From: a virus
Taxonomy: Duplodnaviria > Heunggongvirae > Uroviricota > Caudoviricetes
IMG/VR virus record: IMGVR_UViG_2778261515_000019
Coordinates: 1-38,450 of that record
DNA length: 38,450 nucleotides
Reading direction: 5' to 3' (one strand)
The notes below the pieces were generated by a model that saw only the letters and a list, made by a program, of their open reading frames with translations, made no database searches and was not told the DNA's origin. The position numbers were made by a program, and so were the translations under genes. This document shows, piece after piece, positions 10,455 through 35,244 of the stretch. Positions within the stretch are counted from its first letter, which is position 1. Every line of letters begins with the position of its first letter.

Positions 10455-10526
10455 TAACTCGCCGTCCTTCGGGGCGGCTTACTCCTAAATATTGTTAATC
10501 CAATAACAATTAAATAAGGGGTGATT

Positions 10527-11021: not shown

Positions 11022-11031
11022 GGGGTAAATC

Positions 11032-12543: not shown

Positions 12544-12588
12544 TAACCAACGGGGGCGCAATGCCCCCAATTAATTAAAGGTGATTAA

Positions 12589-16364: not shown

Positions 16365-19300
16365 ATGCAGTCGATCCAATTTAAACGCACACAAACGGCT
16401 GGTAAAAAACCAACGCCGGAACAATTATCACAGGGTGAAATCGCCTTACAGTTGGCGGATCATGTGATTTACACCAAAGACAAAAATAATAACGTAGTCC
16501 AAATTAGTGTTTCTCCAGAAAAACACGCTGAACTGAATACGAAAGTAGACAATAACAAAACTAGCACTGACCGTGTTATTGCTTCCAACAAACAAGAAGC
16601 CGCTAATAATCTGGCTAGTGCTAAAGCTGAACTGAATCAGACTATTACCACGAAAGATACAGCGACCAATAAGCGCATTGATGCTACTAACACCACGGTT
16701 AGTAACTTAACCCAGACAGTCACGGCAAATAAAACCGATGCTGATACTAAGATCAATAACCTTACGGGGACAGTTGCATCTAACAAATCAGCTATAGAAA
16801 CTACTGTAGCAAATAATAAACGAGATGCGGACAATAAAATCGCAGCTTTAACCACGACGGTTAATGACAATAACACCGCGATTAACAACAAAGTTAATAC
16901 CACTAACACCAACGTTAGCAACTTAACTAAAACTGTTACTGCAAATAAAACCGATGCAGATAACAAAATTTCTAGCTTAACTAGCACGGTTGCAGCTAAC
17001 AAAACAGCGATTGAAAAGGTCGTTTCCGACAACAAGAAAGATGCTGATACGAAGATCACCAACTTAACCAACACTGTTAATAGCAACCACACCGCCATTA
17101 ACAACAAGGTTGACCAGAATAAATCAGCTACTGATTCAGCGATTGCAGCCGCTAACCGTCGAATTGATGGTATTGAAGGTAGCAACGATGCTCTTTACAT
17201 CAAGAAGAATACCAACACTAAGCACGGCGGGTATCTGTTAAGCAAGACAGCTAACTATCTGGAAGACCAGACATCACGAGATCTTAACTACTTTGGTGCT
17301 TTCCGTACCAATGGTCTTGATGGACTCATGGATCTAACTCTTAACGTTCCTCACTCTGCCGGTAAAGCTCACGGTCGCGGATTTACTTTCCGTTATGCGT
17401 CTGGTGGATCTCGTGTTGAAACCTATGGTTTTGATAGAGATGGACAGAAGAACTTTAGCTATAAGATGTATCACGAAGGTGATAAGCCGACTCCTGGCGA
17501 GATTGGTGCATACACCAAAGCCGAAGTTGATAAGATGTTTGTTAAAAACGTCGCTATGTCTGTTCCCAATTCTAGCGAAAACGTATCTGCATATTTCAAA
17601 TTGGCAACCGCAACAATTCCACAAAACGGGCGTAGTGTGTTTTTCCGTATTCATGGTGGTGATGGTTACAACGTTGCGGCATATGACCAAGTTGATGTAG
17701 TAGAAATTCTTCTCCGTAGTGGTAACGATAGACCTAAAGGACTTAACGTAGTTGCATATCGTCGAAATACCGTCAAAGATTTTGATGTATTTGCCGTCAA
17801 TACATCCGGTGATAACTATGACATTTATGTGAAATATCAGCGTTACACTGATAACGTTATTGTAGAATATGGGAAATCTGTTAATGTAAGTCTGACGGTT
17901 TATGATACGCCGGAAGCCACGTTAATTAAACCTTCTGTTGGTGTTATTGGCGGTCGCGCGGTAACTCTATTCAATACAGAAAACAAACGAGGTGTGTTGA
18001 GTTTTGACGATAACACACAAAATAGTTATGATATTGTTCACTTGAGTAATGATAGGGGTACTGGACGAAAATATATTCGTAAATTCCGTAGTAACTATAA
18101 TGAAATGATCTGGCACGAGACGGTTCAAGGCGCCAGCTATCGTCTGGCTACTGGTGCAACTGATGCTCAGGAGATTCTAACCGTTGAATCTGTTAGCTCA
18201 ATTGCTGGAACTCATAAAGGTAATATTACTTCTGGCCGTATGCTGTTAAATGGCGGTAGTAATGTTATTACCTTGCGGCGTCCTGCTGGTCAATCCAACC
18301 ATATTGCGTTTCAAGATAATCGGACTGGAGATATTACCCGTCAAGGGTGGATCGGTTATGCCAATGCTGATACTAACGTTTTTGAATGGTATAGTGATGT
18401 AGGTGGCAGTTCTATTCGTCAACATATCGACGGACAGATCGAACTTGCAACCGGTAACACAAAACGCGTTTATACTAACGCTCAATTCATCTCAATGAAT
18501 AGCGACGCCTACCGTATGCTCTATGGTAATTATGGTGCATTCTGGCGTAATGACGGCGTTAAAGTTTATCTTCTTTCTACTGCCGAAAATGATAAATTGG
18601 GCGGATGGAATACTTATCGTCCATTCATTTATGATTTAACTTCCGGTAACGTTCAATTAGGCGGTGATGGTAACGAAGATGCATTAACGTTAGAACGTGC
18701 TTCTCGTGCCGCTCGCTTTAGTAATGACGTTTACATTAAGAAAGGGCATTTGACTTTCGACGCTGGGCGATTAAATTCCCGCGATTACTTCCGGTTTAAC
18801 CATTGGGGTGATAGCAATAACGGTCGCGATAACATCCTACAGATTGAAGACAGTAAGGGCGCACATTTTACCACTGAACGTACTTTATCAACTGGTGCGA
18901 TTAAAACTAAATTCTTCGGTGATTTGGAATCTGCTGGTCAAATTAAATGGGGTAAAGGGACCGCCGCATCTACGTTTACTCTACGTGTATGGGGTAACGA
19001 TAGTCGTAAACAAATATTTGAATGTGGCGATGAAAGTGGGTGGCATTGGTATACCCAACGACCTGGCGGTCCAGGTACTACAGCAATAGAATTTGCTATC
19101 AACGGTACTGTTAAGCCTCAAGCAATTCACAGTGGCGGTAATATCACTATCAACGGTGCTGATATTGAGTTTCGTCGCAGTGGCAATAAGCATTTGTGGT
19201 TTAGAGATCCGAACGGTTTAGAGTTAGGCTTGATGTACTGCGATGATGCTGGTGCTATTCGCTTCCGTGGTCAGAAACAAGCCCAGGCGTGGAAATTTGC

Positions 19301-19979
19301 AGATAAAATGATCCAGTTGGAATCTGGCACTGTATCCGGTGGCGGTAATGGCCTGATTCGTGGTGAAGTTGCTGGCGGTAGTTGGGCTAGCTGGCGTGAC
19401 CGTGCTGCTGGCCTTATGGTTGGGTGTCCTCAATCCACCAACTCGGCACATAACGTATGGAAAGCGACGCATTGGGGTAAATATCACATTGCAGCAATGG
19501 CTGTACATGTTCCTGATGGTACTATTACCAATGCTTTAGCTCGCCTAAACGTTCATGACGCCAACTTTGACTTTAACGCTGCGGGTGATTTTAGCGCAAG
19601 TCGTAATGGTAGCTTTAACGATGTTTACATTCGTTCGGACCGTCGTCTGAAAGTTAATCTGGAAGAATTAAAAGATGATGCTTTAGAGAAAGTAAACTCC
19701 CTGAAAGTCTACTCATACGATAAAGTTAAGTCTCTTAAAGATCGTAGTGTGATTAAACGCGAAGTCGGTATTATTGCTCAGGATCTGGAAGAAGTATTGC
19801 CGGAAGCAGTAGGTATTCAATCCACCGAAGATCCAGAAAATCCAGAAGCAATTAAGACTATTTCTAACTCTGCTGTTAATGCCTTGATTATTAAAGCTAT
19901 TCAGGAAATGGACGCCAAATATCAAGCTAAGATTGAAGCATTGACTAAAGAGATTGCCGAACTCAAAGCAACTAAATAA
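16365..19979 (+). CDS. Long tail fiber with N-terminal Thr/Asn-rich tandem repeats and C-terminal intramolecular-chaperone-like domain
   Basis: 1204 aa; two ~72-aa repeats NxSNLTxTVTANKTDADxKI...; C-terminal SDRRLKVNLEEL...VYSYD...GIIAQDLEEVLPEAV resembles autoproteolytic chaperone domains of fiber/endosialidase proteins. Confidence 0.8.
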   Translation: MQSIQFKRTQTAGKKPTPEQLSQGEIALQLADHVIYTKDKNNNVVQISVSPEKHAELNTKVDNNKTSTDRVIASNKQEAANNLASAKAELNQTITTKDTATNKRIDATNTTVSNLTQTVTANKTDADTKINNLTGTVASNKSAIETTVANNKRDADNKIAALTTTVNDNNTAINNKVNTTNTNVSNLTKTVTANKTDADNKISSLTSTVAANKTAIEKVVSDNKKDADTKITNLTNTVNSNHTAINNKVDQNKSATDSAIAAANRRIDGIEGSNDALYIKKNTNTKHGGYLLSKTANYLEDQTSRDLNYFGAFRTNGLDGLMDLTLNVPHSAGKAHGRGFTFRYASGGSRVETYGFDRDGQKNFSYKMYHEGDKPTPGEIGAYTKAEVDKMFVKNVAMSVPNSSENVSAYFKLATATIPQNGRSVFFRIHGGDGYNVAAYDQVDVVEILLRSGNDRPKGLNVVAYRRNTVKDFDVFAVNTSGDNYDIYVKYQRYTDNVIVEYGKSVNVSLTVYDTPEATLIKPSVGVIGGRAVTLFNTENKRGVLSFDDNTQNSYDIVHLSNDRGTGRKYIRKFRSNYNEMIWHETVQGASYRLATGATDAQEILTVESVSSIAGTHKGNITSGRMLLNGGSNVITLRRPAGQSNHIAFQDNRTGDITRQGWIGYANADTNVFEWYSDVGGSSIRQHIDGQIELATGNTKRVYTNAQFISMNSDAYRMLYGNYGAFWRNDGVKVYLLSTAENDKLGGWNTYRPFIYDLTSGNVQLGGDGNEDALTLERASRAARFSNDVYIKKGHLTFDAGRLNSRDYFRFNHWGDSNNGRDNILQIEDSKGAHFTTERTLSTGAIKTKFFGDLESAGQIKWGKGTAASTFTLRVWGNDSRKQIFECGDESGWHWYTQRPGGPGTTAIEFAINGTVKPQAIHSGGNITINGADIEFRRSGNKHLWFRDPNGLELGLMYCDDAGAIRFRGQKQAQAWKFADKMIQLESGTVSGGGNGLIRGEVAGGSWASWRDRAAGLMVGCPQSTNSAHNVWKATHWGKYHIAAMAVHVPDGTITNALARLNVHDANFDFNAAGDFSASRNGSFNDVYIRSDRRLKVNLEELKDDALEKVNSLKVYSYDKVKSLKDRSVIKREVGIIAQDLEEVLPEAVGIQSTEDPENPEAIKTISNSAVNALIIKAIQEMDAKYQAKIEALTKEIAELKATK

Positions 19980-20678: not shown

Positions 20679-21185
20679 ATGGCGAATGTCGTTAATAAGC
20701 CCGGCTGGGTCGGGTCATCTGCTGTTTCTGTAACTAGTCAACGATGGATGACCGCAGCAATGAACGCATTAAAGGTTAGTCGCCCAGCTAACATGAGTGC
20801 GATGTGTGGTCGTGGTATGGATACGGTTGTAGCTACTGCTGCGTGGTCTACTTCATTGGGTAATAACTGGGGTGTAACTGCTTCAAACTATCCAGTAACT
20901 GACATGCGCGGTAAAGGATCTATGGAGAACCCCGAAAACGTTGGCGTAGGGCGTCTGATTGGCGTTATCGTTGGTCAATTCAATGGTGGTACTCCTACTA
21001 TGGCTGTATATCTCCAGAACGGTAGAGCGGGGAATATAACCGTTAATTTGGGTGGTGCTGCTGTCACTGTTCCTTATAACAGTATGCAAAGTGGTTTTCA
21101 TTACTACTGGTTAAGCAATCCTCCGGCTGCTTTCCTTACCAACATTAAGAAGACTGGCACTAAGCAGACTTTGAAAATCTCTTAA
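20679..21185 (+). CDS. Tail-associated protein of unknown role
   Basis: 168 aa; between tail tube and chaperone genes. Confidence 0.45.
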   Translation: MANVVNKPGWVGSSAVSVTSQRWMTAAMNALKVSRPANMSAMCGRGMDTVVATAAWSTSLGNNWGVTASNYPVTDMRGKGSMENPENVGVGRLIGVIVGQFNGGTPTMAVYLQNGRAGNITVNLGGAAVTVPYNSMQSGFHYYWLSNPPAAFLTNIKKTGTKQTLKIS

Positions 21186-21919: not shown

Positions 21920-24349
21920 ATGACAAGACATATAGTAACAATAGAAGGGGATAATAAAGGTCTAAGGAGAAGTACCAATGAAGCCGCCGACCTTCTCGAT
22001 CGTTTGTCTGAAAAGGCAAGTAATATTGATTTTGGTGGTGGCTTATCTGGTCTGACTGGATCTCTTCGTGGGATCGCTGGCTCTGCTGGTTTGGCTGCTG
22101 GTGGTATCGGCTTAGTTGCTACCGCAGTGGTTGCAGCCGCTAAAGCTGGCGCGGAATACGTTAAACAGTATTCAGAAGTATCTAAGGCGACCGGACTCTC
22201 GATTGAATCCCTTCAAAGACTGGAAAAGGAATTTTCTGGTACTGGCCTAACAGTTGAAAAATTCGGTGATATCAACAAAGACACCTTAGATAAGATGGGT
22301 GATGCATGGGCTAACGGTGGTGGTATTGCTGATGACTTAGAATCGGTTGGCCTTAAGTTAGAAAACTATGCTCACTTCATGACAGATCCGCAAGGTGGTA
22401 TGAAAGCGGCGATCCAAGTGTTCTATGACATGAAGAAAGCCGGAAAATCAATGGCTGAAATCAAGTTCATGATGGAATCTTTAGCCAGTGATTCAAGCCA
22501 TATGACCAGCCAGCTTGAGAAATATAATAGTGCTCAAGAGGCGATGATCGCTATTCAGAATCAATCTGTTAACGTCACCGAAGAAAACGCTAAAAAATAT
22601 GATAAATTTTCTCAGAATATTAATAAGCTGGAAAATAACCTGAAAGGTGTCGGTATGACCATTACTGGTCCGCTGGTTGATAGCTTAAACTGGTTATTTG
22701 AATGGTTTAATATTGATTGGGAAAAGAGTTCTCTATTCAGGGCATTAGACCGTCTGAATAAAGAAGGTAAGACCGCAACTGGTGGTATTCTTAACACCAA
22801 CCATAAAGACGCTCAAAAGATTATTGACAAGTACAATAAAGAAAAGCGTTGGAATAATCTGGCAGATTGGGAAAAGGCCGCGATCCGTGGTGCTGGTGTC
22901 GATCCTCGTACTGCTGGCTTTGATGTTGAAGGATTTAAGAAACGTTTTGGTGATTCTTATAAGAAAAATGGCTCTCTGATTGTTGTCGATAACGGGGAAC
23001 ATCTAACCCGCAAGGCAGATCCTAACCATGATTTGACTATCCCGACTACACCAACTCGACCAGCTTCATTGGGTAAGTCTGGCAACGAGAAGAAAGCCGA
23101 GGAAGAAGCCAAAAAGAAAGCGGAAGAGGCAGCTAAAAAGGCTAAGGAAGCCGCAGAAAAAGCACAGAAAGCACGCGAGGATGCAATCAAGCGACTGAAT
23201 GCACTTGATGTTAAATTGCAAGGGCAAGTTGCAGCGTCTATTGCTTCTCAAAACAAGCAGTTAGAAGCCAGCTTGAAAGATTTGGATACTGCTTTAGATC
23301 TGGGCTTAATCTCTCAGCAAGACGCAGCCGCGAAACGCCAATCATTAATCGATCAGAATACTGAAAACGTATACAAGATGATTTTAGGTGCTGATCCGGT
23401 TGATGCTTTGAATGCCTTAACACAATTGCAACAAATCAGGGACAACGAGTTAGAAAGCCATAAACGGTTACTTGATGGCAAGGCTATCTCCTACGAAGAA
23501 TATATGCGTCGTGTGAATGATACCGAACAAAGTTATTCACAGATTGAAGATTCTTTGCATGGAATGGATGGTTTTAAAACCAATCAGTTGACCAATAGCT
23601 TAGACTATCAAGACTCAAATAACCCGTTTGCTAAATTTAATGCAATCGATAAAGAGAAATCGGAAGCGGAACAAGATTATAAGACCGATAAACTCAAGAT
23701 TGATGGGATCACCGATCCGGCTAAACGGATGGCTGCATTAGAAAAACTCAATGAAAACCATCAAAAACGAATGGCTGCAATTGAGAAGAAATATGCTGAT
23801 GCTCGACAGTCAATAGCCGATGATATGTATGGCGGTTTTGCTGCTGCAATGACTCTCTTCGGGCAGGAAAACACTAAAGCTATGCAGATGGCTTTCACTG
23901 CTCATAAAGCATTCTCCATTGGACAAGCGACGGTGAACATGTGGACGGCTGCTACCGATGCATGGAACGATCCGACCAACGTAACCACAGGTCAAAAAAT
24001 CGCTGCTGCTGCATTGGCTGTTTCTCAGAACATGGGGAACATCGCAAACATCAAGTCTACTAACGTTAGCGGTATGGCTCACGATGGTATTGATAACATC
24101 CCTCGTGAGGGTACATGGCTGCTTGATAAGGGTGAACGAGTAGTTGATCAGCGTACTAACGGTGATTTGAAAGACTTCTTATCTGCTCAAAAATCAGGCG
24201 GTGGCAACTCTCAGCCGATTGAAGTTAATGCGCCTTTGAACATTAACGGCAACGTTAATAGCTCAGACAAGATGGTTATGGATGCTATCAAACGTCACGC
24301 TAAGTTAGTTGCTCAGGCGGTAGAAGACGCACAGCGCCGTAAGATGTAA
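21920..24349 (+). CDS. Tail tape measure protein
   Basis: 809 aa; Gly-rich membrane-like segment GIAGSAGLAAGGIGLVATAVVAAA; extensive coiled-coil; position after G/GT. Confidence 0.85.
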   Translation: MTRHIVTIEGDNKGLRRSTNEAADLLDRLSEKASNIDFGGGLSGLTGSLRGIAGSAGLAAGGIGLVATAVVAAAKAGAEYVKQYSEVSKATGLSIESLQRLEKEFSGTGLTVEKFGDINKDTLDKMGDAWANGGGIADDLESVGLKLENYAHFMTDPQGGMKAAIQVFYDMKKAGKSMAEIKFMMESLASDSSHMTSQLEKYNSAQEAMIAIQNQSVNVTEENAKKYDKFSQNINKLENNLKGVGMTITGPLVDSLNWLFEWFNIDWEKSSLFRALDRLNKEGKTATGGILNTNHKDAQKIIDKYNKEKRWNNLADWEKAAIRGAGVDPRTAGFDVEGFKKRFGDSYKKNGSLIVVDNGEHLTRKADPNHDLTIPTTPTRPASLGKSGNEKKAEEEAKKKAEEAAKKAKEAAEKAQKAREDAIKRLNALDVKLQGQVAASIASQNKQLEASLKDLDTALDLGLISQQDAAAKRQSLIDQNTENVYKMILGADPVDALNALTQLQQIRDNELESHKRLLDGKAISYEEYMRRVNDTEQSYSQIEDSLHGMDGFKTNQLTNSLDYQDSNNPFAKFNAIDKEKSEAEQDYKTDKLKIDGITDPAKRMAALEKLNENHQKRMAAIEKKYADARQSIADDMYGGFAAAMTLFGQENTKAMQMAFTAHKAFSIGQATVNMWTAATDAWNDPTNVTTGQKIAAAALAVSQNMGNIANIKSTNVSGMAHDGIDNIPREGTWLLDKGERVVDQRTNGDLKDFLSAQKSGGGNSQPIEVNAPLNINGNVNSSDKMVMDAIKRHAKLVAQAVEDAQRRKM

Positions 24350-24399: not shown

Positions 24400-24960
24400 A
24401 TGTTCAAATCAAAGAATATTAAAATCACAGATTTTACTCTTAAATCAAAACAGCCTTTCTTCAAGGCGCAATCTATCTCCGGTAAGTTCCAGCGTCGCTT
24501 TACTGGCATCCATTTTTACGAAGCAGAATTTACCGCGAATTTCATGGCTCAGGATATTAACGAAGTAAAAGAATTTGTAGCACGTCACCTTTTTGGTCGT
24601 CCTTTCAATGTGCCACTGTCTTACTTTTCAAAATATACAGGTGATGTACGCCAGATGGTAACGGCTGCTGCTGGTACTGCTCGCGGTGGGCGTAAGGTGA
24701 GAATCTCCAACTTCACCGGAACACTGAAAGCGGGAACTGTCATCCAGTTTGAGAACCACAAGAAAATCTACACGATCACCGAAGATGTGAAATCAGGTGG
24801 TGAAATGAAACTCTTCCCTAACTTGCGTCAAAACGTCCTGGCGGGTGAGGTGATCAAGTATCAAAACGTAGAAGGTGAATTTGTTCTCAAAACTGAAAAT
24901 ATCGATTGGAAGATCGCCCAGATTGGCAAGATGAAATTCGAATTAGTGGAGAATGTATAA
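24400..24960 (+). CDS. Minor tail protein (distal tail / gpM position)
   Basis: 186 aa; position after tape measure. Confidence 0.45.
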   Translation: MFKSKNIKITDFTLKSKQPFFKAQSISGKFQRRFTGIHFYEAEFTANFMAQDINEVKEFVARHLFGRPFNVPLSYFSKYTGDVRQMVTAAAGTARGGRKVRISNFTGTLKAGTVIQFENHKKIYTITEDVKSGGEMKLFPNLRQNVLAGEVIKYQNVEGEFVLKTENIDWKIAQIGKMKFELVENV

Positions 24961-25613
24961 TGGCAACTATTCAAGAATCATTCAGCAAACTATGCACTAA
25001 TCTGGACTTCATCGAGGTATACAACGACCAGACAGGTCAGAATGTGTCTAGATTGACTCTACCGCAGCTTTTCTCTACTGGCTCGATGTTTCACATTATC
25101 GAAGTGATAACAGCGTCAGGTGACGTTCTACGGCTTACAGATGGGTATTTCGATTTGGACTATAACGGTTTTACATATCTCGCAACGGGTGACTTTCTTC
25201 AAATCTCATCGAATACCGAAGAGAAGGAGATCAACAACAACGGGATCAACGTAACTGTTTCTAACGTTCGCGAGGAATACATTACTCTCATTCGAAACAA
25301 GCAATTCGATAAATCTGATGTGAAAATCGAGATGGTTTTCCTTAACCCCAACACGGGAAAGGTTGAAACCACTTACCCTGTTTTCCGTGGGGTAGTCGAT
25401 TCCATCGGGATTAACATCGAACATGAAGATGATGAGTGTAAAAACGAATCAGAATTTCAGCTTAATAGTATCTGGGAAGTTCTAGATAAAAACGCCCGTA
25501 GTCATGCCTCCGATGGTATCCACCGTTCCTATGTTGGAAACGAGAACGATCTATTCTTCTCTCGTGCCGGGAAGTGGAATAGCGAAAGCAAGTGGCATTC
25601 TTCTAAGAAATAA
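24960..25613 (+). CDS. Minor tail protein L-like
   Basis: ATG overlaps upstream stop (TAATG); 217 aa; weak gpL-like segments; C-terminal Cys/His-containing region. Confidence 0.45.
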   Translation: MATIQESFSKLCTNLDFIEVYNDQTGQNVSRLTLPQLFSTGSMFHIIEVITASGDVLRLTDGYFDLDYNGFTYLATGDFLQISSNTEEKEINNNGINVTVSNVREEYITLIRNKQFDKSDVKIEMVFLNPNTGKVETTYPVFRGVVDSIGINIEHEDDECKNESEFQLNSIWEVLDKNARSHASDGIHRSYVGNENDLFFSRAGKWNSESKWHSSKK

Positions 25614-25659
25614 TCCCTTCTCCCTAAGCCTAGTAAATAACAGCATGGAGGTATTCAAC

Positions 25660-26079
25660 ATGCTAAAAACTAGGCTTATCACCGATTACATCAATTCTTT
25701 AATAGGTCAGGAGTTCGTTCAGGGTGAGAATGATTGCAATCTAATTGCATGTAAGATCATCGATATTCTCGCTGGTACTGACCTATATAATTCTCTTTAT
25801 AAAAAATATTCAACTAAAGAAGAAGGCTTGAAAATCTGCAAAGAATTAAGCGGGTATTCAAATATCCTTCAACCAATTAAGAAACATTTCAAATTAGTCA
25901 CTGATGATTTACAGGACGGCGACTTACTGGTCACAGCCCACAAATTAGGAAACCGTAATTATTATTCCGTAGTTCCTCATTATTCCGGTTATGGCCTCGT
26001 TGAAGAAGATGGTATCTGGATGACCATTCCTGTTTCAGACATTGACTATGAACAAGTTTATAGATTCGGGGGTGAATAA
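25660..26079 (+). CDS. Tail assembly protein K-like (NlpC/P60-type segment)
   Basis: RBS GGAGG; GENDCNLIACKI candidate catalytic Cys; gpK position. Confidence 0.45.
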   Translation: MLKTRLITDYINSLIGQEFVQGENDCNLIACKIIDILAGTDLYNSLYKKYSTKEEGLKICKELSGYSNILQPIKKHFKLVTDDLQDGDLLVTAHKLGNRNYYSVVPHYSGYGLVEEDGIWMTIPVSDIDYEQVYRFGGE

Positions 26080-29000
26080 TGGGATTTGAAGTATTGGTAG
26101 GCGCGGTTATTGCTGGTGCGTCTGCTGGGATGGCTGCTGCTGCAACATTTTCTGTTATGACCGCAGTCGCTATCGGTATGGCTGCTGGTGCAATGACCTT
26201 GATCGCTTCCACTGTAGGCGCACCGAAAACACCGAAAGTACAAAGCCCAGATAATGCGGTGACACTAGGAACATCAAACGATCCTAAGACAGTATTACCC
26301 GTTATTTTTGGTACTACCCGCACGGGTGCAATCTGCGTTTACAAAGCAATTTCCAAGCAAGAAAACAATAAGTTAGTGCAAATCTTCGCTATTGCCGAGG
26401 GTGAAATCGACCATTACAAAGCACTGTTTATCGATAACAAAAATGTTCTTGTTGGTAAGAACATGACGATCCGTGATGGTGTACTGGACAAAGGCAACAT
26501 TAAAGAAGAATATCGGAAAGTCTTAGAAGTTGAGTTCCGCACGGGTAAGAATCCTAACACCGCTTTGTCACTGGCAAAACGTCATTTAGGATCAGACTGG
26601 AACGACAACTACAAAGGCAATGGTATTGCAACCATGTGTATTGTGTTACGTCGTGATGACAAATCTCTTGCTGCTGGTGTTGATATTCTCCAGCCAAATA
26701 GCCAGGTAGCAGTAGACGTTTGCGGCCTTAAAATCCGTAACCTTGAAACCAATGCTATTGAGGCTAGCACTAACGGCGTGGATCAGATTTTCCACTACCT
26801 AACAAATGAAAAATATGGCTTATCCGTACCAATTGAAAACATTAACGTTGATTCATTCCTGAAAGTACGTAAACAAGTACGCCAGATGGACCTACATTCA
26901 AACGGTGCATGTGATCCGAACGCCAGCTTTAAAGAGAACTTGACTAGCCTTATGCAGACTTTCGGCGGGGTGATGTTCGAATCCTTTGGACGTATTACCC
27001 TGAAACTGGATGCTCCTGATATTGTTAAGCATACCTTCAATGAAGACAATATTATGATGGGGAAAGTATCACTGAAAACAGGTGGCACTAACGGTTATTT
27101 CAATACCATTAACGCGATGTATCAGGAACCATCAATCGACTATTCCGAGCAAATGCTACGTTATCCGGCTGATGCTGAAAACGATGCTACTATTCGTCAA
27201 GATGGTCGAATTATCGCTAAAGATATTGAATATCGTTTTGTTAAGTCTAAAGCCCAGATTGATAAACTTGCGAGTATTGAGCGAAATAAATCTCGTATCA
27301 CTCAGGTTATCAGCTTTATGACTACTGACGCATTCACTGCCGAAGTTTGGGACGTTATCAGCGTAACCTATGATGAATTGAAGCTGAATAATTCCTTATG
27401 GCGTATTACTGCAATTGATCGCTCGATTGATTCTGGTATTGCTGGGATGATGACTATCACCGCTACAGAATATAATTCTCAGGTTTATACTGACCTGAAC
27501 TATGCGGCTAACCCAGATAACCGACCAAGTGGTTTACCGGATTCAATGACAGTACAGAAACCGACTAATTTCAGAATTAAGGCAACTGGCGAGACGATTT
27601 ACGGTAAAAACGTTACTTTGACATGGGACGCACCGGAAGATTTTAACCGCTACGGTTTCCAGATTGATTATCGTGTGAGTGGATCACCTAACTGGATTAA
27701 GCTGGGACAGACTTCACAGCAAATTTTCAATATCAACGCACTGGCTAAAGATCGCTCTTATGATTACCGAGTTTGTGCTTTCGGTATCATCGCTCGATCC
27801 GATTGGGTAGAACTGATTAACCAGAATCCGACTGTTACCTATGAATTGCCGACTCCGGTTATTCGAATCAAAAATCAGGGTAGCACGCCAGGAACTTTCG
27901 AAGGTAATGATCTGATTATCGAATGGGAAAACCAGCAACAATTAGATGTTGAGATCAACGGTGAAACTAACAAGTTTAGTGACCTGTTTGAAGCATACAT
28001 TATCAAGGTGACTAACAAGGCTGGTAAGTCTATTCAGTACCGTACCCGCGATCCTGAATCATGGACTTATACGCTTGATATGAACCAGTTTAACGGCCTT
28101 TCGCGTCAACTGACGGTAGAAGTATCGGCTAAGGGCTATAACAACTCAGAGAGCGCCCCAGCGCGTTTAGTGGCTATCAACCCACAACATAAGCCAATGA
28201 AAGGTTTTAGTGCGCGTGGTGGCTTTAATACTGCGTTTGTTAGCTGGGTAGATGACGTAGAACATGACTATGCAGGGTCAATCATCCAGTATGCAACCGA
28301 TAACACTTTCTCCGATGCAAGGGCGGTAAGCACGAATAGTGTTAGCCATACTTCCTTTGATTTGGCAGACGGTGATTATTATATCCGTGGTGCTCACTAC
28401 GATATTTTCGGTATGGATGATGCTGTTTGGTCTGAACCGTATTTCATGCAAATGAAATCTACCATTAGCTGGGACGATCAGGACAAAGAAGCACTGGAAG
28501 ACCTGATTGGTTTACAAGACCGCTTAGATGAAACTATCGCGGATGCTATTGCTCAAGCTGGCGCTAATGCCGATGCTAAAATTGATGCAATGCATAAGCA
28601 AATCACTACCGAAACAGGGCAGACGGTCCAAGCCTCAGCCAATACCTTAAAGAGTCTGATTGCTACCAGCGAGCAAGCTAGCTCCACTAAGATTGATCAG
28701 GTTAAAGCTGAACTGAAAGGCGATATTAAATCCGAAGTCAGCGCATCTGCTACTACCCTGAAACAAGCAATTGCTACCAGTGAGGCAGCAAGCGCAAGCA
28801 AGATTGATCAAGTTCGGGTAGAAATGGATGGCAAGATTGCTGGCGTGAATCAGGAAGCAGATGTAAAAATCGATGCTTTGAAAGGAACCATTAACAGCAA
28901 ATATAATCTGGCAGTTAATGCAGATGGTCGCGTGGCTGGTATTCACATGAGCGCAACCAACGATCCGGCGCAACCGACGAGAATCATCTTTAATGCTGAT

Positions 29001-29855
29001 AAAATCGCGGTAGCTCCACAGAACGGATCGGAAGTATGCCCGTTTGGTATCGAAGGTAACAAGGTTTATCTCGATAATGCGATGATTCGTAATGCTGCAA
29101 TTGGTACAGCCCAGATTAATGATGCGGCGATTACCACGGCTAAAATCGGCAATGCTGCAATTAACAGCGCGAAGATTCAGGACGGGGCAATCACTAACGC
29201 GAAGATCGTAAACGGTGCAATTGATAACGCTAAAATCGGTAACTATATCCAGTCTTCCAACTGGAACGGATCGACCGGATGGCATATCAACAAGAACGGG
29301 TCCGCTACGTTCATGAACGCTACCGTTAAAGGTAATATCACGGCTGATTCTGGTACTCTGAACAACGTCACGATTAACTCTAGCTGTGTTATTAAGGGTA
29401 TGCTTGAAGCTACTCAGGTTAAGGGTGATTTCGTTAAGGTGATTGGACGTAAGTTCCCGCATCGTGATGTTAACGTTGATAATGGTTATGCTGGTTATCC
29501 ACAGGGAACGGTCACTGTTCGCGTTGAAGATGATCACAAGTTCGATCGTCAAATCGTTATTCCGGCTGTTAGTTTTGGTGGATTGCGAGCGCGTGAAGGG
29601 TCGAACAATAATACCTATTACGACACCTGTCGCCTGATTGTTCGTAAGAATGGGTCAGAGTTGTATAATAGGGCGTATGGCGGTAATACTGGTCTTTACT
29701 CAGGTGTTATTGATATGCCAGCGGGTAAGGGTGCTGTGACCTTGACCTTTGAAGTACACTCAAGCGCAATCAACAACTGGACGCCTAGCACATGGATCAG
29801 TGATTTAACAGTAATGGTAACTAAAAAAGCCACTACCGGTATTACTGTTTCTTAA
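26079..29855 (+). CDS. Tail tip / host specificity protein: gpI-like N-terminus fused to J-like body with lambda-J-like C-terminal receptor-binding region
   Basis: N-terminal Ala/Gly-rich hydrophobic stretch like lambda gpI C-terminus; C-terminal SGTLNNVTINSSCVIKG...DDHKFDRQIVIPAVSFGG...IDMPAGKGAVTLTFEV resembles lambda J C-terminus as recalled. Confidence 0.85.
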   Translation: MGFEVLVGAVIAGASAGMAAAATFSVMTAVAIGMAAGAMTLIASTVGAPKTPKVQSPDNAVTLGTSNDPKTVLPVIFGTTRTGAICVYKAISKQENNKLVQIFAIAEGEIDHYKALFIDNKNVLVGKNMTIRDGVLDKGNIKEEYRKVLEVEFRTGKNPNTALSLAKRHLGSDWNDNYKGNGIATMCIVLRRDDKSLAAGVDILQPNSQVAVDVCGLKIRNLETNAIEASTNGVDQIFHYLTNEKYGLSVPIENINVDSFLKVRKQVRQMDLHSNGACDPNASFKENLTSLMQTFGGVMFESFGRITLKLDAPDIVKHTFNEDNIMMGKVSLKTGGTNGYFNTINAMYQEPSIDYSEQMLRYPADAENDATIRQDGRIIAKDIEYRFVKSKAQIDKLASIERNKSRITQVISFMTTDAFTAEVWDVISVTYDELKLNNSLWRITAIDRSIDSGIAGMMTITATEYNSQVYTDLNYAANPDNRPSGLPDSMTVQKPTNFRIKATGETIYGKNVTLTWDAPEDFNRYGFQIDYRVSGSPNWIKLGQTSQQIFNINALAKDRSYDYRVCAFGIIARSDWVELINQNPTVTYELPTPVIRIKNQGSTPGTFEGNDLIIEWENQQQLDVEINGETNKFSDLFEAYIIKVTNKAGKSIQYRTRDPESWTYTLDMNQFNGLSRQLTVEVSAKGYNNSESAPARLVAINPQHKPMKGFSARGGFNTAFVSWVDDVEHDYAGSIIQYATDNTFSDARAVSTNSVSHTSFDLADGDYYIRGAHYDIFGMDDAVWSEPYFMQMKSTISWDDQDKEALEDLIGLQDRLDETIADAIAQAGANADAKIDAMHKQITTETGQTVQASANTLKSLIATSEQASSTKIDQVKAELKGDIKSEVSASATTLKQAIATSEAASASKIDQVRVEMDGKIAGVNQEADVKIDALKGTINSKYNLAVNADGRVAGIHMSATNDPAQPTRIIFNADKIAVAPQNGSEVCPFGIEGNKVYLDNAMIRNAAIGTAQINDAAITTAKIGNAAINSAKIQDGAITNAKIVNGAIDNAKIGNYIQSSNWNGSTGWHINKNGSATFMNATVKGNITADSGTLNNVTINSSCVIKGMLEATQVKGDFVKVIGRKFPHRDVNVDNGYAGYPQGTVTVRVEDDHKFDRQIVIPAVSFGGLRAREGSNNNTYYDTCRLIVRKNGSELYNRAYGGNTGLYSGVIDMPAGKGAVTLTFEVHSSAINNWTPSTWISDLTVMVTKKATTGITVS

Positions 29856-29873
29856 AATTTAATTTTAATAATT

Positions 29874-29914
29874 AATCCCGCTTAATTCTTTTGAGTTAGG
29901 CGGGATTATTTTTA
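29874..29914 (+). terminator. Terminator after tail-tip gene
   Basis: AATCCCGCTTAA ... TTAGGCGGGATT stem followed by ATTTTTAT. Confidence 0.5.
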
Positions 29915-29960
29915 TCTAAATATTTCTGCCATTAAACTATATAAAAATATCGGGGGCGTA

Positions 29961-30239
29961 ATGACTGAAATTATATATGGCGGTATCGGTGTTATCGCCT
30001 TAATTTGCGGTGGTCTTTGGAGACTTCACCGAAATCAATTAGCCACAGAAAATAGATTGTCGAAATTAGAGTCCAATGATGCATTGTTTAATCAGAAGTT
30101 TGAAACAATGCAAAGTAACCATGACCAGATCGCCGAGAGAGTTTATCGCATGGAACAAACACTACACGGTATAGAGAAGAAAGTGGTTGCGATGGACGCC
30201 AAATTTGACCAAGTTCTCGACATACTCAAACAAAAATAA
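29961..30239 (+). CDS. Single-TM protein with coiled-coil tail (holin/antiholin- or spanin-like candidate)
   Basis: N-terminal TM GGIGVIALICGGLW followed by heptad-rich helix. Confidence 0.4.
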   Translation: MTEIIYGGIGVIALICGGLWRLHRNQLATENRLSKLESNDALFNQKFETMQSNHDQIAERVYRMEQTLHGIEKKVVAMDAKFDQVLDILKQK

Positions 30240-30258
30240 TAATAAAAGGGGTGAATAT

Positions 30259-30429
30259 ATGAAGAATAAACTTAAGAAATATTTTGGTTATCTCTTGATT
30301 ATCGCCCTCACTTATAACGTAGCAATTAGACCTCTGCTAACGTCCTTTGGGCTTGAACTCCCGGCTATGACCGTGGATGAACAATTGCTAAGGACACTGG
30401 CGGGGGTCTTTTCGTTATTAGGGGGCTAA
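30259..30429 (+). CDS. Small membrane protein (holin-like candidate), 56 aa from ATG at 30259
   Basis: RBS AAGGGGTG; hydrophobic FGYLLIIALTYNVAI and LAGVFSLLGG. Confidence 0.4.
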   Translation: MKNKLKKYFGYLLIIALTYNVAIRPLLTSFGLELPAMTVDEQLLRTLAGVFSLLGG

Positions 30430-30430
30430 C

Positions 30431-31114
30431 ATGGCAACCAGTACCAATAAACGAAACGCTCTAAGGACTAAGAAAGCGTTACGCCAATGGACTGATAAAG
30501 CAACCGATACATTCGAAAGGGCGATAGGGGAAGGGGCGATCTTTGCTTCCAGAGCACTCCAGAAGAAGATTAACAAGAATGTTGATAGACCGACTCGATG
30601 GACTCAGCAAGCTGTAGGTAATACCAACTACAAGAACCGATCAGGGACGAGACACCAAATCTTCATCAAGGGCGCAAGGGATAAGGACAAGAAGATCGGC
30701 AGTCAAGACGACTATCTGAAACACTATTTCGATGGTGGCAAAATCAATAAGCTAGTGCCAATAGCTAACGGTAAGGTCTTAGACTCCCACGGGAACATTA
30801 AGGCCATTAAAGGCGGTAAGATGATGCGTAACATCGAAAATGGCAACTTCATCAAGGTAGAGAACAAGGAAGGGACTTTTATCATGAAGAAGTACAAGCC
30901 TAAGAAATCCCGAACCAAACGCGCTAGGAATGGATCGGCGGTGGCAAAACGTCGCTTAGAGAAACGCATACAGAAACAGAGCAAGCGAATTGTTGCCGTT
31001 AAGTCAGATAAAATTTCTACTCGTTATTCGACGCTAGGATCGTGGGAAAGCAACGAGGAAATGATGCTTAAGAACATTAATAAGCACATTAAATCGCGCA
31101 TGAGATACGTTTAA
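30431..31114 (+). CDS. Highly basic protein of unknown function
   Basis: 227 aa, Lys/Arg-rich throughout. Confidence 0.5.
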   Translation: MATSTNKRNALRTKKALRQWTDKATDTFERAIGEGAIFASRALQKKINKNVDRPTRWTQQAVGNTNYKNRSGTRHQIFIKGARDKDKKIGSQDDYLKHYFDGGKINKLVPIANGKVLDSHGNIKAIKGGKMMRNIENGNFIKVENKEGTFIMKKYKPKKSRTKRARNGSAVAKRRLEKRIQKQSKRIVAVKSDKISTRYSTLGSWESNEEMMLKNINKHIKSRMRYV

Positions 31115-31152
31115 TCCATAAATACCCTCATAGAATCTTATGGGGGTATAAC

Positions 31153-31500
31153 ATGGCTAAAAATATTTTCACTGAATTTCCTACTTATCCGGTCGATCAG
31201 CTTTCCGGTATTTTTATTAATGGCATTAGCCCAGAATCAATGACACATGATTTTGAGGCGAAGAGAGTTAAACATAAACAATATAAAGAATGTATCCGCG
31301 ATCATGAAAAAGGGACCGTGTTTTGTGTCGCTACATTGGCTAAACGTCCTAAGTATCGTTTTCGTGTAGGGCAAGAAGTCGATGTAGTTAATCCTTATAG
31401 CTTTAACTGTCTGGGTGATGCACGCGCGGTGTGTGTAGGCACTGCTCCTTATTATATCAAGGGTATGCGCTTTATTGGTTATATCTTCGAAATGATCTAA
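31153..31500 (+). CDS. Hypothetical protein, 115 aa
   Basis: Clean ORF between terminators and flanking genes; no family recognised. Confidence 0.5.
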   Translation: MAKNIFTEFPTYPVDQLSGIFINGISPESMTHDFEAKRVKHKQYKECIRDHEKGTVFCVATLAKRPKYRFRVGQEVDVVNPYSFNCLGDARAVCVGTAPYYIKGMRFIGYIFEMI

Positions 31501-31509
31501 GGGGGTAAT

Positions 31510-31863
31510 ATGTTAAGCAAACATTTTTCTCGCAAGGAATTTAAATGTAAATGCGGAAAATGTGATTATGATACAATCGACGCTGAATTACTGGTAATTC
31601 TTGAGGATGTACGAGAGCACTTCGGTAAACCAGTGATTATTAACAGTGGCAACCGTTGCCCGACTCATAACAAGAATGTAGGCGGGGCAGCCAATAGCTA
31701 TCATGTTCGAGGCCGTGCGGCTGACATTGTGATCAAGGGTGTCTCCCCTGATATTGTCCATGCTTATCTTGATGGGAAATATCCTACTCAATACGGCTTA
31801 GGCAAATATAAAACCTTTACGCATATCGATTCCAGATCGAAAAAATCACGGTGGAATGGATAA
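31510..31863 (+). CDS. Peptidase M15-family cell-wall hydrolase (endolysin candidate)
   Basis: Motifs SYHVRGRAADI and THID (zinc ligands H/D/H of the Hedgehog/DD-peptidase fold) and CKCGKC; RBS GGGGGT. Confidence 0.65.
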   Translation: MLSKHFSRKEFKCKCGKCDYDTIDAELLVILEDVREHFGKPVIINSGNRCPTHNKNVGGAANSYHVRGRAADIVIKGVSPDIVHAYLDGKYPTQYGLGKYKTFTHIDSRSKKSRWNG

Positions 31864-31896
31864 AACAAAAGCGCCTCTAGTGGGCGCTTTTTTGTT
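31864..31896. terminator. Bidirectional terminator between convergent plus operon and helicase gene
   Basis: AAGCGCC-TCTAGTG-GGCGCTT flanked by A-run and T-run. Confidence 0.65.
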
Positions 31897-33394
31897 ATAT
31901 AGCAATTGTTTTAGTTGCATAGCTGAACTTGTCGGTTAGATAATAGCGGATTCTCTCAAGTGCATGTTTTACCGCATAATTTTTATGCTTGACTTTTCCG
32001 TTACGACCGAATATACACAGATGATCTATAAGATCCCAGACCGTTGCAATATCCTTAGAACCATGTTTACGCAATGCACGACCGATACTCTGACGAACGA
32101 TAGTTGATTCCTTCACGGGATGACCGAAAATAACATGGTGCAAGTTCTTAATTGAAACACCAGTAGAGAACACACCATAGGATGCAACGCAAATGATCCC
32201 GGTTTCCCCTTCCGCTAATTTCTTAAATTCATCACGTTCTTCTGTCTTAACTCCACCGTCAATATAATAAACCTTGTTGTGTACCTTCTGTAACGCATCA
32301 TACATAAGTTTTCCGTGCTTAGTATTGCGGAACATCAGGAATACGTTTTCGCCCTTCTTAGCGAGTTTTAGCGCCAAATTACAAGCAAACTTATTTCGTC
32401 GTGGGTTAGACGTAATATACTTGATCTCTTCCGCATATTCTCTCCCCTTAACCGCGCTACATTCCTCATCGGTATAACGAAGGAAAAGACAGTTAATTTT
32501 CAGTTTTGTCACCTGCCCTTCTTCCATCAGGCGGTCAATACTCACGATCTTAGAAATATCACCGAAAAGCCCGACATACTGCATTAAATGGCACTTTGAT
32601 TCTTTCGGGGAACCAGTCATGCCGATCTTAAATTGGCAATGATTCATTCCGTTAATGATATTGGTAATATTTTTGGCACTAGCCTTATGCGATTCATCAA
32701 CTATCAACATTCCATATTGTCGGAACCATTCAGGAGGCATCTTGCAAGCTGATTGCCAGGTACTAACCGTGATTAACCTGTCTCCCGGATGTTTCCCGCT
32801 ACCACTCATCATTGTATGAATTGCTTCATAAGGGAATAACCGATAATCGATGAAATCATCCCTCATTTGAACCACTAGCGATGTAGTAGGGACAATGATT
32901 AACACTTTTCCGGTGTAATGCTCTAAGTACCAGCGAGACAGCATACAAGCAATCAATGACTTTCCGGCACTGGTAGGAAGAACCAGCATTCTACGGCGAT
33001 TATGAATACCCTGAAAGACTGCCTCCCTTTGATACCAGTAAGGATTGATTTTATTGGAACCGGAATACACTTCTAGGGAATCAATCCATTCATTAATCGC
33101 GTCTTTGGTTACATCTTCCTTCTCAAGTAATCTGGGGTCAATCCAGACTGAATACCCCATATTTTTAACGAAGACACCCAACGTTTTTAATAGTCCAATT
33201 GGTAGGGTGTTTTCATGCGTAAACAGTCTTATTCGTCCATCCCAGCCAGAATACTTGTAACGGGGGCTAAACCTAGCCCCTTCAACCTCAAACGAGAAAT
33301 AATCTCTTAATTCCATTCCGATAGAAGGAGAGCAATCAACCTTAACGAAACTGTAATCTTGAAAATGAATTTTAATATCTTGCATTAGTTCCAC
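31895..33394 (-). CDS. SF2 DNA helicase, UvsW-like
   Basis: Motif I LPTSAGKS, motif II LIVDESH; N-terminal IKIHFQDYSFVKVDCSP...LRDYFSFEVEGARF...WDGRIRLF strongly resembles T4 UvsW as recalled. Confidence 0.8.
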   Translation of the reverse strand: MELMQDIKIHFQDYSFVKVDCSPSIGMELRDYFSFEVEGARFSPRYKYSGWDGRIRLFTHENTLPIGLLKTLGVFVKNMGYSVWIDPRLLEKEDVTKDAINEWIDSLEVYSGSNKINPYWYQREAVFQGIHNRRRMLVLPTSAGKSLIACMLSRWYLEHYTGKVLIIVPTTSLVVQMRDDFIDYRLFPYEAIHTMMSGSGKHPGDRLITVSTWQSACKMPPEWFRQYGMLIVDESHKASAKNITNIINGMNHCQFKIGMTGSPKESKCHLMQYVGLFGDISKIVSIDRLMEEGQVTKLKINCLFLRYTDEECSAVKGREYAEEIKYITSNPRRNKFACNLALKLAKKGENVFLMFRNTKHGKLMYDALQKVHNKVYYIDGGVKTEERDEFKKLAEGETGIICVASYGVFSTGVSIKNLHHVIFGHPVKESTIVRQSIGRALRKHGSKDIATVWDLIDHLCIFGRNGKVKHKNYAVKHALERIRYYLTDKFSYATKTIAI

Positions 33395-34200: not shown

Positions 34201-35244
34201 TTAGGCGACCAGAGGAACTGCTGGTCTGTTTGATAAATCTCTGCATTTAGCAGTTTTCAATGTTGCCAAAACAAAAGTTAAGAAGATGTTCCTTTTCTCC
34301 ATGTCGCTTTCTTTGGCGTAATTTACAAGGTTATTCCACACAAGATAGTTGTTCAGATACTTGGTAGAAACACCGTTAAAGCCACGCATAAACCTCTTTA
34401 GCTGGCTATGGTAGCTATTGATATGTTGGATATTATAAATGCCTTTCTTGGCTTTGCCAGTCTTTAACTGCACAAGGTCAATGCCATTGGCATTTGTAAA
34501 TCTCACATAGGAGTTCATCTTGTCCGTAACAAGAGTGGAATTGGTCTTAATCCTACCATCATAAATATGATGTAAATCTCTTGTAGAAACTCTACCAGTA
34601 TTCGTAATCTTGGAGATAGACAAGCCATTCCTATTAACCGCACAAGGAACACATACCTTTTCTTGGGACAAGCCTCTGATATGTGTAGAATGACCACGCT
34701 TATGAGCCTTGCGTGGCATAGCAAATGTCTTACTCTTGCTATGATTGCCCTTGTACGAGATGGCGAAAAAAGTTTCGTCAGCCTCAATAATGCCGTCAAG
34801 GGTAACATCGTCTGCCATATTCTGAAGTGCATCCAAAATCTTGTGTCTCCAAAGGAATGCGGTGTTTCTGTGAATCCCACAAGCAACAGCAGTCTTACGA
34901 ATGGATAAGCCATTCATCATACAATCAATGTACTGCTCCCACACGGACAAGTCTTTTCTTGTACCAGACACAATGGAGTTCGTAGCAATCACGAAGGACT
35001 TGCCACAATCCTTACATACATATCGCTGTGTGCCATCTTTACGATGACCATTGCGAACCACATGGATACAGCCACAAAGAGGGCATACACGACCATTTGC
35101 AAAGCGTTCCTTTGCTACGAAATCTTCAATATTCAAAGACTTTACAAAGGCAGGACTTAAAAGCATTGTTTTAAGGCTTTCCTGCTCTGCGACAGTCAAC
35201 TTACCGATAATATCTAATGCGTCTTTGATAGTAGGCATATCCAA
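34201..35244 (-). CDS. IS1595-family (ISXO2-like) DDE transposase
   Basis: 347 aa; N-terminal zinc-ribbon CPLCGC...CKDCGK; DDE core; directly upstream of lnu gene inside the IR-bounded element. Confidence 0.75.
   Translation of the reverse strand: MDMPTIKDALDIIGKLTVAEQESLKTMLLSPAFVKSLNIEDFVAKERFANGRVCPLCGCIHVVRNGHRKDGTQRYVCKDCGKSFVIATNSIVSGTRKDLSVWEQYIDCMMNGLSIRKTAVACGIHRNTAFLWRHKILDALQNMADDVTLDGIIEADETFFAISYKGNHSKSKTFAMPRKAHKRGHSTHIRGLSQEKVCVPCAVNRNGLSISKITNTGRVSTRDLHHIYDGRIKTNSTLVTDKMNSYVRFTNANGIDLVQLKTGKAKKGIYNIQHINSYHSQLKRFMRGFNGVSTKYLNNYLVWNNLVNYAKESDMEKRNIFLTFVLATLKTAKCRDLSNRPAVPLVA

Follow-up and report, generated by a model that had tools for sequence, protein, structure and literature searches.

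A J/megatron-type tail-tip protein of an Escherichia coli prophage carries the plug module of lambda gpI in the same chain as hub and fibre

We analysed a 38,450-nt stretch of DNA, the IMG/VR virus record IMGVR_UViG_2778261515_000019 (hereafter the window), and followed up one large open reading frame (ORF) in it, whose product is a 1258-residue phage tail-tip protein. An earlier sequence-only reading had described this product as a hydrophobic gpI-like N-terminus fused to a J-type protein with a lambda-like receptor-binding end. The best description is a J/megatron-type tail-tip protein in its common single-chain form, with a plug module that in lambda is the C-terminal half of a separate protein, gpI. 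We put at about 0.8 the probability that a temperate siphovirus of E. coli has its tail-tip hub and central fibre built from a trimer of this product, which is colinear with the C-terminal half of gpI followed by gpJ. The homology of each part, an I/J junction at about residues 95-99, the single-chain rule and the exchange of the receptor domain as a cassette we regard as established. The protein is a further member of a known phage protein family; the fusion was correctly noticed but is ordinary, its first interpretation stands in part, and no new kind of machine is involved.

The end of the protein that bears the fibre and the receptor-binding domain is related to lambda J by direct alignment. 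BLASTP found 32% identity between residues 949-1258 and J 872-1131 (E=3e-36), and Pfam recognised the lambda-J-type receptor-binding domain Ig_GpJ_C over the last ~135 residues (Table 1), as the sequence-only reading had predicted for this part. In the straight fibre that precedes it, a full-protein Pfam scan placed Phage_Tail_Tip at residues 932-1016 (E=3.4e-18, above the gathering score). The alignment with lambda J is gapped opposite residues 1005-1064, where the protein carries an insertion of about five to six decapeptide repeats of the form 'xAKIxxxAIx' (residues ~1000-1060, nt 29076-29258; units TAQINDAAIT, TAKIGNAAIN, SAKIQDGAIT, NAKIVNGAID and NAKIGNYIQS). These repeats are kept in relatives of 42-76% identity, and a search for tandem repeats at the DNA level in the fibre-coding part found none. 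Upstream of the straight fibre, the helical stem gave only weak Pfam matches to helical-repeat families (Apolipoprotein, E=9e-4), and PDB matches to other J-like fibres (T1 9l9p_S, F2 pyocin) began at about residue 842. Before the stem, one sub-segment of residues 481-800 matched fn3 weakly; the other two had no credible Pfam match, and the number of domains in this region can be inferred only.

The receptor domain taken alone is 41% identical to that of lambda and 48% identical to the A8/2H10-type allele. The best solved relative of the receptor end is PDB 9wca ('A8 gpJ 713', E=2e-54, with lambda J at ~1e-35), whose receptor domain occurs in identical form in phages 2H10 and Turner and in Stx2a prophages. 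Over the last ~190 residues the closest sequences, at 52-54% identity, are J proteins of lambdoid E. coli prophages (VT1-Sakai, relatives of Shiga toxin (Stx) phages, PhiR phages), and the nearest lambdoid prophage alleles are mostly associated with enterohaemorrhagic E. coli (EHEC) or Stx. No data on the receptor of VT1-Sakai-type and 2H10/A8-type alleles were found in the searchable literature. Within the prophage family to which the window belongs, the receptor domain behaves as an exchangeable cassette: the last 150-250 residues range from 8% to 100% identity among alleles whose remainder (the first 1000 residues) is 80-97% identical. Salmonella alleles of the family have unrelated C-termini that lack Ig_GpJ_C.

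The sequence-only reading had gone on from the lambda-like end to a LamB-type receptor, and this step does not follow. Binding of LamB by the C-terminal domain, in the manner of lambda J, is possible but doubtful. Membership of the same Ig_GpJ_C fold family, the native use of LamB by both lambda and phage 21 (PMC11101478, PMC11336670) and an E. coli host all speak for it. Set against these are the distance to the lambda domain and the greater closeness (48-54% identity) to EHEC/Stx-type prophage and 2H10-type alleles, as well as the several divergent alleles, together with the unrelated Salmonella C-termini, that are found attached to one and the same hub within this prophage family. Published receptor switches point the same way. 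Replacing lambda J with the tail fibre gene of phage 434 leads to OmpC binding (PMC11101478), a comparison made here at the level of the gene. In phage 21 a single J mutation adds the use of OmpC and a few more add OmpF; receptor specificity is labile in J domains of the Ig_GpJ_C type (PMC11336670). Because of the 41% identity, the cassette exchange and the OmpC switch by one J mutation in phage 21, LamB is not inferable. On this analysis the receptor would be an outer-membrane protein, a trimeric porin of the LamB, OmpC or OmpF class being the most likely type; which porin cannot be inferred from the sequence.

The hub domains are J-like at a deeper level of similarity. BLASTP against lambda J returned nothing outside residues 949-1258, the hub included. 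The NCBIfam model NF049904 (lambda_TipJ) scored 205.6 bits against a cut-off of 1950 bits and matched only residues 1068-1258, and the FNIII-A_GpJ, Ig_J and Ig_J_second domains, all present in lambda J, had no Pfam match in the 1258-residue protein at E<=0.01. A hidden Markov model (HMM) covering the first ~560 residues of the family did match lambda J (overall E=3.6e-35), through J 265-499 (domain E=4.6e-26) and J 564-708. Pfam Phage-tail_3 matched residues 285-447 weakly, below its cut-off (E=7e-4), and homologues of 88% identity carry this domain (PF13550). An AlphaFold2 (AF2) model of residues 1-500, made from a 50-sequence alignment, had a mean predicted local distance difference test (pLDDT) score of 80.4, with strands 75-91 and 98-118 packed confidently into the hub. 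Foldseek searches of the PDB with this model ranked pb3 of DT57C and T5 highest (E=8.5e-27 to 3.8e-26, TMq 0.66-0.69), followed by phage Chi, then the megatron of the Rhodobacter capsulatus gene transfer agent (RcGTA; 6tba_8A, E=5.7e-17), and then lambda J (E~1e-16, TMq ~0.51). Judged by its predicted fold, the hub is a baseplate-hub protein nearer to the T5/GTA type than to lambda. The term 'J-type' used in the sequence-only reading is thus apt for the fibre and receptor end by direct alignment, and for the hub only at the level of profile or fold, where T5 pb3 is nearer.

Ahead of the hub lies the C-terminal module of gpI ('TAPI-C': Gly/Ala-rich hydrophobic helices, plug and beta-strands). 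Ala accounts for 30% of residues 1-47, Gly for 15% and Val for 13%, and a single residue is charged, a make-up similar to that of gpI 100-155; the Kyte-Doolittle 19-residue mean exceeds 1.6 at window centres 10-39, as it does in gpI at centres 110-147. BLASTP of residues 1-133 with lambda gpI aligned residues 48-107 with gpI 156-223 (34% identity, E=2e-6 in this single comparison). In a phmmer search of the whole PDB, gpI was the top match (residues 7-98 with gpI 119-214), at a weak E of 0.055; the next match, of residues 72-120 with T5 pb3 263-311, was not significant (E~1.1). We then used the superfamily as a whole. From 150 members collected with residues 1-480 as query, an N-terminal HMM was built on the first ~200 residues of 147 representatives plus the query (148 sequences). 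Its positions 18-109 matched gpI 108-222 with 26.0 bits (E=5.5e-5 at Z=177,635, the size of the PDB), and its positions 99-164 matched lambda J 21-77, so that the gpI and J matches are colinear. The longer HMM of ~560 residues matched gpI again. Correspondingly, 'VLPVIFGTTRTGAICVYKAI' of the protein pairs with 'VLPVLYGEMRVGSRVVSQEI' of gpI, and 'LVQIFAIAEGEIDHYK' with 'LLSVIDAISEGPIEGP' of lambda J. These alignments place the lambda I/J boundary at about residue 95-99 of the single chain. Pfam cannot add a curated family to this comparison, PF06805 (Lambda_tail_I, ubiquitin-like) covering only gpI 14-97.

Could such a resemblance arise by chance from a hydrophobic composition rich in Ala and Gly, in which case the N-terminus would be just a membrane anchor or signal-like segment of a generic kind? 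The first 47 residues are of low complexity, the gpI C-terminal part has no Pfam model by which a curated family test could be made, and the PDB-wide single-sequence E value is only 0.055. The strongest similarity, however, lies in the non-hydrophobic part, in the 'APK..P..Q..DN' plug and the 'VLPV(I/L)(F/Y)G..R.G' strand; this motif is conserved across the superfamily, and the gpI match continues colinearly into the J match. Moreover, among 6000 composition-preserving shuffles of gpI, which were of three kinds (the whole of gpI, its segments apart, and the polar tail alone with the hydrophobic part untouched), the top score was 13.8 bits and none reached the 26.0 bits of the real sequence. 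Because no shuffle exceeded 13.8 bits, the resemblance to gpI goes beyond Ala/Gly-rich composition, and a chance origin is very improbable. That the first ~90 residues are like the C-terminal part of gpI, as first proposed, is therefore upheld by the pairwise alignment, the family HMM and the shuffles alike.

The AF2 model gave strands 75-91 a pLDDT of 71-91 and residues 1-56 a pLDDT below 50, the latter as expected if this segment is ordered only in the trimer or in a membrane. The ubiquitin-like (Ubl) domain of gpI was not found: PF06805 had no match in residues 1-133 even at E<=10, where the lambda gpI control matched at residues 14-97 with E=1e-28. Neither was a separate I gene. The ATG of the J-type ORF, preceded by a Shine-Dalgarno-like run (GGGGGTGA), shares one base with the TAA of the preceding DUF6950 gene and leaves no intergenic space, and tblastn with lambda I over the window returned one chance-level match of 12 residues (E=5.6). 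The sequence-only reading was right that no I gene stands between the genes it called K-like and J-like.

Single-chain plug and hub are the default of a very large superfamily and not peculiar to IMGVR_UViG_2778261515_000019. An exhaustive HMMER search yielded at least 1553 clusters at 50% identity (E<=1e-3), with alignments that typically begin within the first ten residues of both partners. Almost everywhere the N-terminus follows one plan, an Ala/Gly/Val-rich hydrophobic start, a polar linker and then '(I/L)P(V/I)(V/I)YG..R(V/L)GG'. A strongly hydrophobic stretch was present in the first 90 residues of 125 of the 147 full-length representatives; this hydrophobicity count replaced a strict 'IPVxYG' regular expression (93/147), which proved too strict. 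A few very long relatives (1228-3055 residues) begin at the 'IPVxYG' strand and have no hydrophobic helices; in these phages a separate gene may encode the helices, they may be lacking, or the start of the long gene may have been called wrongly. Fusions of I and J in some prophages have been described before (Iyer et al. 2006, PMC1779556). The same authors suspected some of the variants to be degenerate (PMC1779556), which would suit a single ORF that is an artefact of a sequencing frameshift or assembly join, or a recent private fusion of lambda-type I and J; this is the least credible explanation of all, since the same 1258-residue ORF occurs in many independent complete genomes, its architecture is kept in relatives of 22-76% identity, no Ubl (PF06805) remnant is left and the hub is not lambda-like by BLASTP. 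A recent fusion derived from lambda I and J was ruled out on the last of these grounds: a hub that is not lambda-like in sequence cannot be a recent derivative of lambda I + J. The gene is genuine, given that the 7.5-kb region around it recurs in 57 of 5426 complete E. coli genomes (~1%), always on the chromosome. There the same 3777-nt gene carries the RefSeq label 'phage tail tip domain-containing protein'.

Table 1. Tail-tip gene, its predicted parts and other annotated genes of the window (coordinates in nt of the window)
Feature	Coordinates	Strand	Basis
Side fibre, 1204 aa, T4 Gp34_trimer and Peptidase_S74 chaperone domains, upstream of tail tube gene	16365-19979	+	Domain search
168-aa ORF with T4-type Gp38_N adhesin domain, after tube gene	20679-21185	+	Domain search
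Tape measure protein	21920..24349	+	PHROG 13674, E=2e-65
Distal tail protein (Dit)	24400..24960	+	PHROG 1302 'distal tail protein', E=1e-16; weak pb9 B-domain match
Hub protein 1 (Phage_phiJL001_Gp84_N / DUF2163), gpL / RcGTA g13 position	24960..25613	+	Pfam E=1e-5; PHROG 2048 'tail protein'
DUF6950 gene, lambda K / RcGTA g14 position	25660..26079	+	Pfam DUF6950 E=7e-12; PGAP start equivalent to 25660
Tail-tip hub, central fibre and receptor-binding protein (J/megatron type), 1258 aa	26079..29855	+	Uninterrupted ORF call and translation
Hydrophobic Ala/Gly/Val/Met-rich segment, aa 1-47 (sole charge E4); equivalent of gpI helices H1/H2 and RcGTA megatron iris/penetration domain	26079..26219	+	Hydropathy, composition, PDB phmmer
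Plug/linker 'APKTPKVQSPDN' then strands 'VLPVIFGTTRTGAICVYKAI', aa 48-98; equivalent of gpI 156-215 (plug 159-175 and gpJ-sheet-augmenting strands)	26220..26372	+	BLASTP, family profile, AF2
Baseplate-hub domains, HDII-HDIV type, Phage-tail_3 region, aa 99-480; start 'LVQIFAIAEGEIDHYK' ~ lambda J ~21-40	26373..27518	+	Family HMM, AF2, Foldseek
Fibronectin-III-like decoration domains, aa 481-800	27519..28478	+	Weak Pfam fn3 at 508-570; family HMM ~ lambda J 564-708
Ala/Gln/Lys-rich alpha-helical stem, aa 801-945, same place as lambda J AHS region	28479..28913	+	Sequence reading
Central straight fibre (Phage_Tail_Tip PF09327), aa 946-1123	28914..29447	+	Pfam E=3e-25 on sub-segment
Ig_GpJ_C receptor-binding domain, aa 1124-1258 and stop codon	29448..29855	+	Pfam E=9.3e-34, above gathering score
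Helicase with UvsW_N domain	31895-33394	-	Domain search, UvsW_N E=2e-34

The genes upstream of the tail-tip gene fall into a familiar order. Tape measure, Dit, hub protein 1, DUF6950 protein and J correspond to lambda H-M-L-K-(I)-J and to RcGTA g12-g13-g14-g15. Hub protein 1 showed no BLASTP similarity to gpL and has two Cys only, and so cannot hold the four-Cys iron-sulfur site of gpL, RcGTA g13 and the R4C hub proteins. The DUF6950 protein occupies the position of gpK, which is all that the label 'K-like' of the sequence-only reading can convey beyond a short 'G..DC' motif. BLASTP against gpK and phmmer against the PDB found nothing for this protein, and it has no JAB domain. Aligning a 14-sequence DUF6950 alignment with gpK by hhalign covered just 20 columns round the motif (E=0.077), and gpK against the DUF6950 model gave E=0.067 at best. 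In the 14-member alignment the Cys of 'DC' is invariant and falls on the NlpC/P60 catalytic Cys motif of gpK; the canonical His is not conserved. The likeness to gpK therefore stays one of position; from its sequence the protein may be a non-catalytic assembly factor. A single-sequence AF2 model of it was unusable (pLDDT 38.8). For relatives of the locus in IMG/VR, a single-protein query retrieved only near-identical prophages and a 6-sequence alignment reached relatives of 46-52% identity; in these, a DUF6950 gene for a protein of ~137-151 aa runs up against the start of the large gene or overlaps it.

In lambda, gpI residues ~101-223 comprise two hydrophobic helices (H1/H2), a lumen-blocking plug (159-175) and strands that thread between gpJ hub domains, and the gpI trimer carries the C-terminal helices of the tape measure (PMC11101478, PMC10721106, PMC12617516); the C-terminus of the tape measure, gpH, rests on this gpI tripod (PMC10721106, PMC12617516). 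Upon LamB binding the hub opens, the plugs part and H1/H2 vanish from the map, with entry into the outer membrane proposed (PMC11101478, PMC10721106, PMC12617516). The protein of the window shares with lambda gpI+gpJ the colinear order of helices, plug, docking strands, hub, FN3 region, helical stem, straight fibre and Ig_GpJ_C, the directly alignable last ~310 residues, and the gene order tape measure, Dit, hub 1, small protein and J. It differs in being one polypeptide where lambda has two, in the missing gpI Ubl domain and the missing JAB domain of the protein in K position, in a hub similarity detectable by profile or fold only, in the unmatched FNIII-A_GpJ, Ig_J and Ig_J_second domains, in the decapeptide-repeat insertion of the fibre and in a hub protein 1 without the Fe-S site of gpL. 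Lambda gpI has been divided into Ubl domain, Gly-rich linker and TAPI-C, with the JAB domain of gpK predicted to cleave off the Ubl (PMC1779556). That Ubl and JAB are both missing here fits this predicted pairing. The lambdoid prophage J proteins (VT1-Sakai, Stx2a long-tailed phages, 2H10, 9wca) are the nearest relatives of the receptor domain, whereas their hubs are of lambda type.

Two other systems keep plug and hub in one chain. In the megatron of RcGTA and R4C the first ~46 residues form an iris/penetration domain that closes the channel and is proposed to make an outer-membrane pore (PMC7296036, PMC10276861). The protein of the window resembles these megatrons in its N-terminal hydrophobic segment (here residues 1-47), in the upstream Dit, Gp84_N-type hub and small gene in the peptidase position, and, for RcGTA, in the fold match noted above. 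At 13% sequence identity, it differs from them in its C-terminus, a lambda-type central fibre and receptor domain where the megatrons end in a binding domain for separate fibres, and in the lack of Fe-S cysteines in hub protein 1. T5 and DT57C pb3 provide the best structural match of residues ~60-500 (HDII-HDIV fold, E~1e-26) and also close the tube with a plug inside the hub chain. In pb3, however, HDI, the gpL equivalent, belongs to the same chain and the plug is internal, whereas here a Gp84_N-type hub protein is encoded by a separate upstream gene; HDI would reside in that protein. A further difference is that pb3 has no receptor-binding domain. Receptor binding in T5 is done by pb5. The equation of gpL, gpI and gpJ's N-terminal part with T5 pb3 was proposed previously (PMC10721106).

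If structures of lambda, T5 and RcGTA are taken as a guide, the hub would be a trimer whose three tethered N-termini shut the tail channel of the virion, just below the C-terminal end of the tape measure. When the C-terminal domain bound its outer-membrane protein, which may be a porin, this would twist the fibre and open the hub; the hydrophobic helices would next descend and become inserted in the outer membrane, their covalent link to the hub intact, and the tape measure, followed by DNA, would leave the tail.

Several points weigh against the description of the product as such a hub and fibre. The protein is known here from its sequence and a predicted monomer model alone, and the prophage from its genes alone. 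The Phage-tail_3 match, at 20.0 bits, falls below the gathering score of 23. The pairwise statistics with gpI are modest, as the PDB-wide E value illustrates; tblastn of gpI over the whole window did not report the N-terminal match at all, and the continuation into J 21-77 is weak when taken by itself (conditional E=4e-4). The plug conformation of the N-terminal 56 residues, given their low pLDDT, is inferred rather than predicted. Finally, even in lambda and RcGTA it is so far no more than a hypothesis that the helices insert into the outer membrane.

The prophage lineage combines a G+C content of 42%, a pb3-like hub, a lambda-like fibre tip, T4-like gp34/gp38 fibre parts and a UvsW helicase. 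Hundreds of E. coli proteins are 95-97% identical to the tail-tip protein, and relatives in Salmonella and Providencia are 80-82% identical. In strain 23CRST001 the region lies within a prophage with a large serine recombinase that adjoins ycdY and the csg genes. Megablast of positions 24400-31900 against 50,697 phage records gave no match, hence there is no isolate reference at megablast level. The nearest isolate protein belongs to Escherichia phage DCP80 (39.6% identity over residues 29-1147), followed by proteins of ~100-kb Vibrio phages (23%). The DCP80 homologue is encoded at 8917-12675 of PQ671644.1, a 141-kb record that is filed under Straboviridae/Gaprivervirus and has motA and endonuclease VII annotations; given the siphovirus-type tail-tip protein, the taxonomy or the assembly of this record looks odd.

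Elsewhere in the window, the UvsW-type helicase named in the sequence-only reading is indeed present. As for its T5-type fibre, the side fibre has a Peptidase_S74 chaperone domain, and the same fibre bears the T4 Gp34_trimer domain. Domains of the Peptidase_S74 type also occur in the L-shaped fibre of T5. The genome is mosaic, as claimed, in the way that tailed-phage genomes usually are, but the fusion is no peculiarity that would mark it as such, with hydrophobic starts in most representatives and megatrons built alike. The side-fibre gene and the Gp38_N ORF flank the tube gene, an unusual placement for a siphovirus tail module. The helicase region is separated from the serine recombinase by a transposase of the IS1595 family (DDE_Tnp_IS1595 and zinc ribbon; 34201-35244, minus strand), and the closest complete genome has a GIY-YIG nuclease gene in its place. 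Positions 12589-14598 (plus strand) encode a 669-residue protease-capsid fusion, with a Peptidase_S78 prohead protease and an HK97-type Phage_capsid domain.

Placing the I/J boundary at about residue 95-99 on a single-chain relative supports the published view that gpL, gpI and gpJ together make one T5-type hub, and the tethered state is accompanied by the absence of both the ubiquitin-like domain known from gpI and the JAB domain known from gpK. We tentatively raise the possibility, which we hold to be somewhat unlikely, that the separate I gene of lambda with its Ubl head, together with the JAB domain of gpK, is an elaboration, particular to one lineage, of a plug-plus-hub gene which most relatives have as one. 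If true, this prophage, with its plug permanently tethered to the hub and with neither Ubl nor JAB, would offer a natural test of whether the helices can plug the tube and afterwards pass into the outer membrane although they are never set free, and would suggest that the Ubl/JAB pair serves only to deliver or process a plug that is free. An E. coli prophage family that is present in ~1% of complete genomes and swaps its receptor cassette is, in addition, useful for host-range prediction and for the engineering of J-type fibres.

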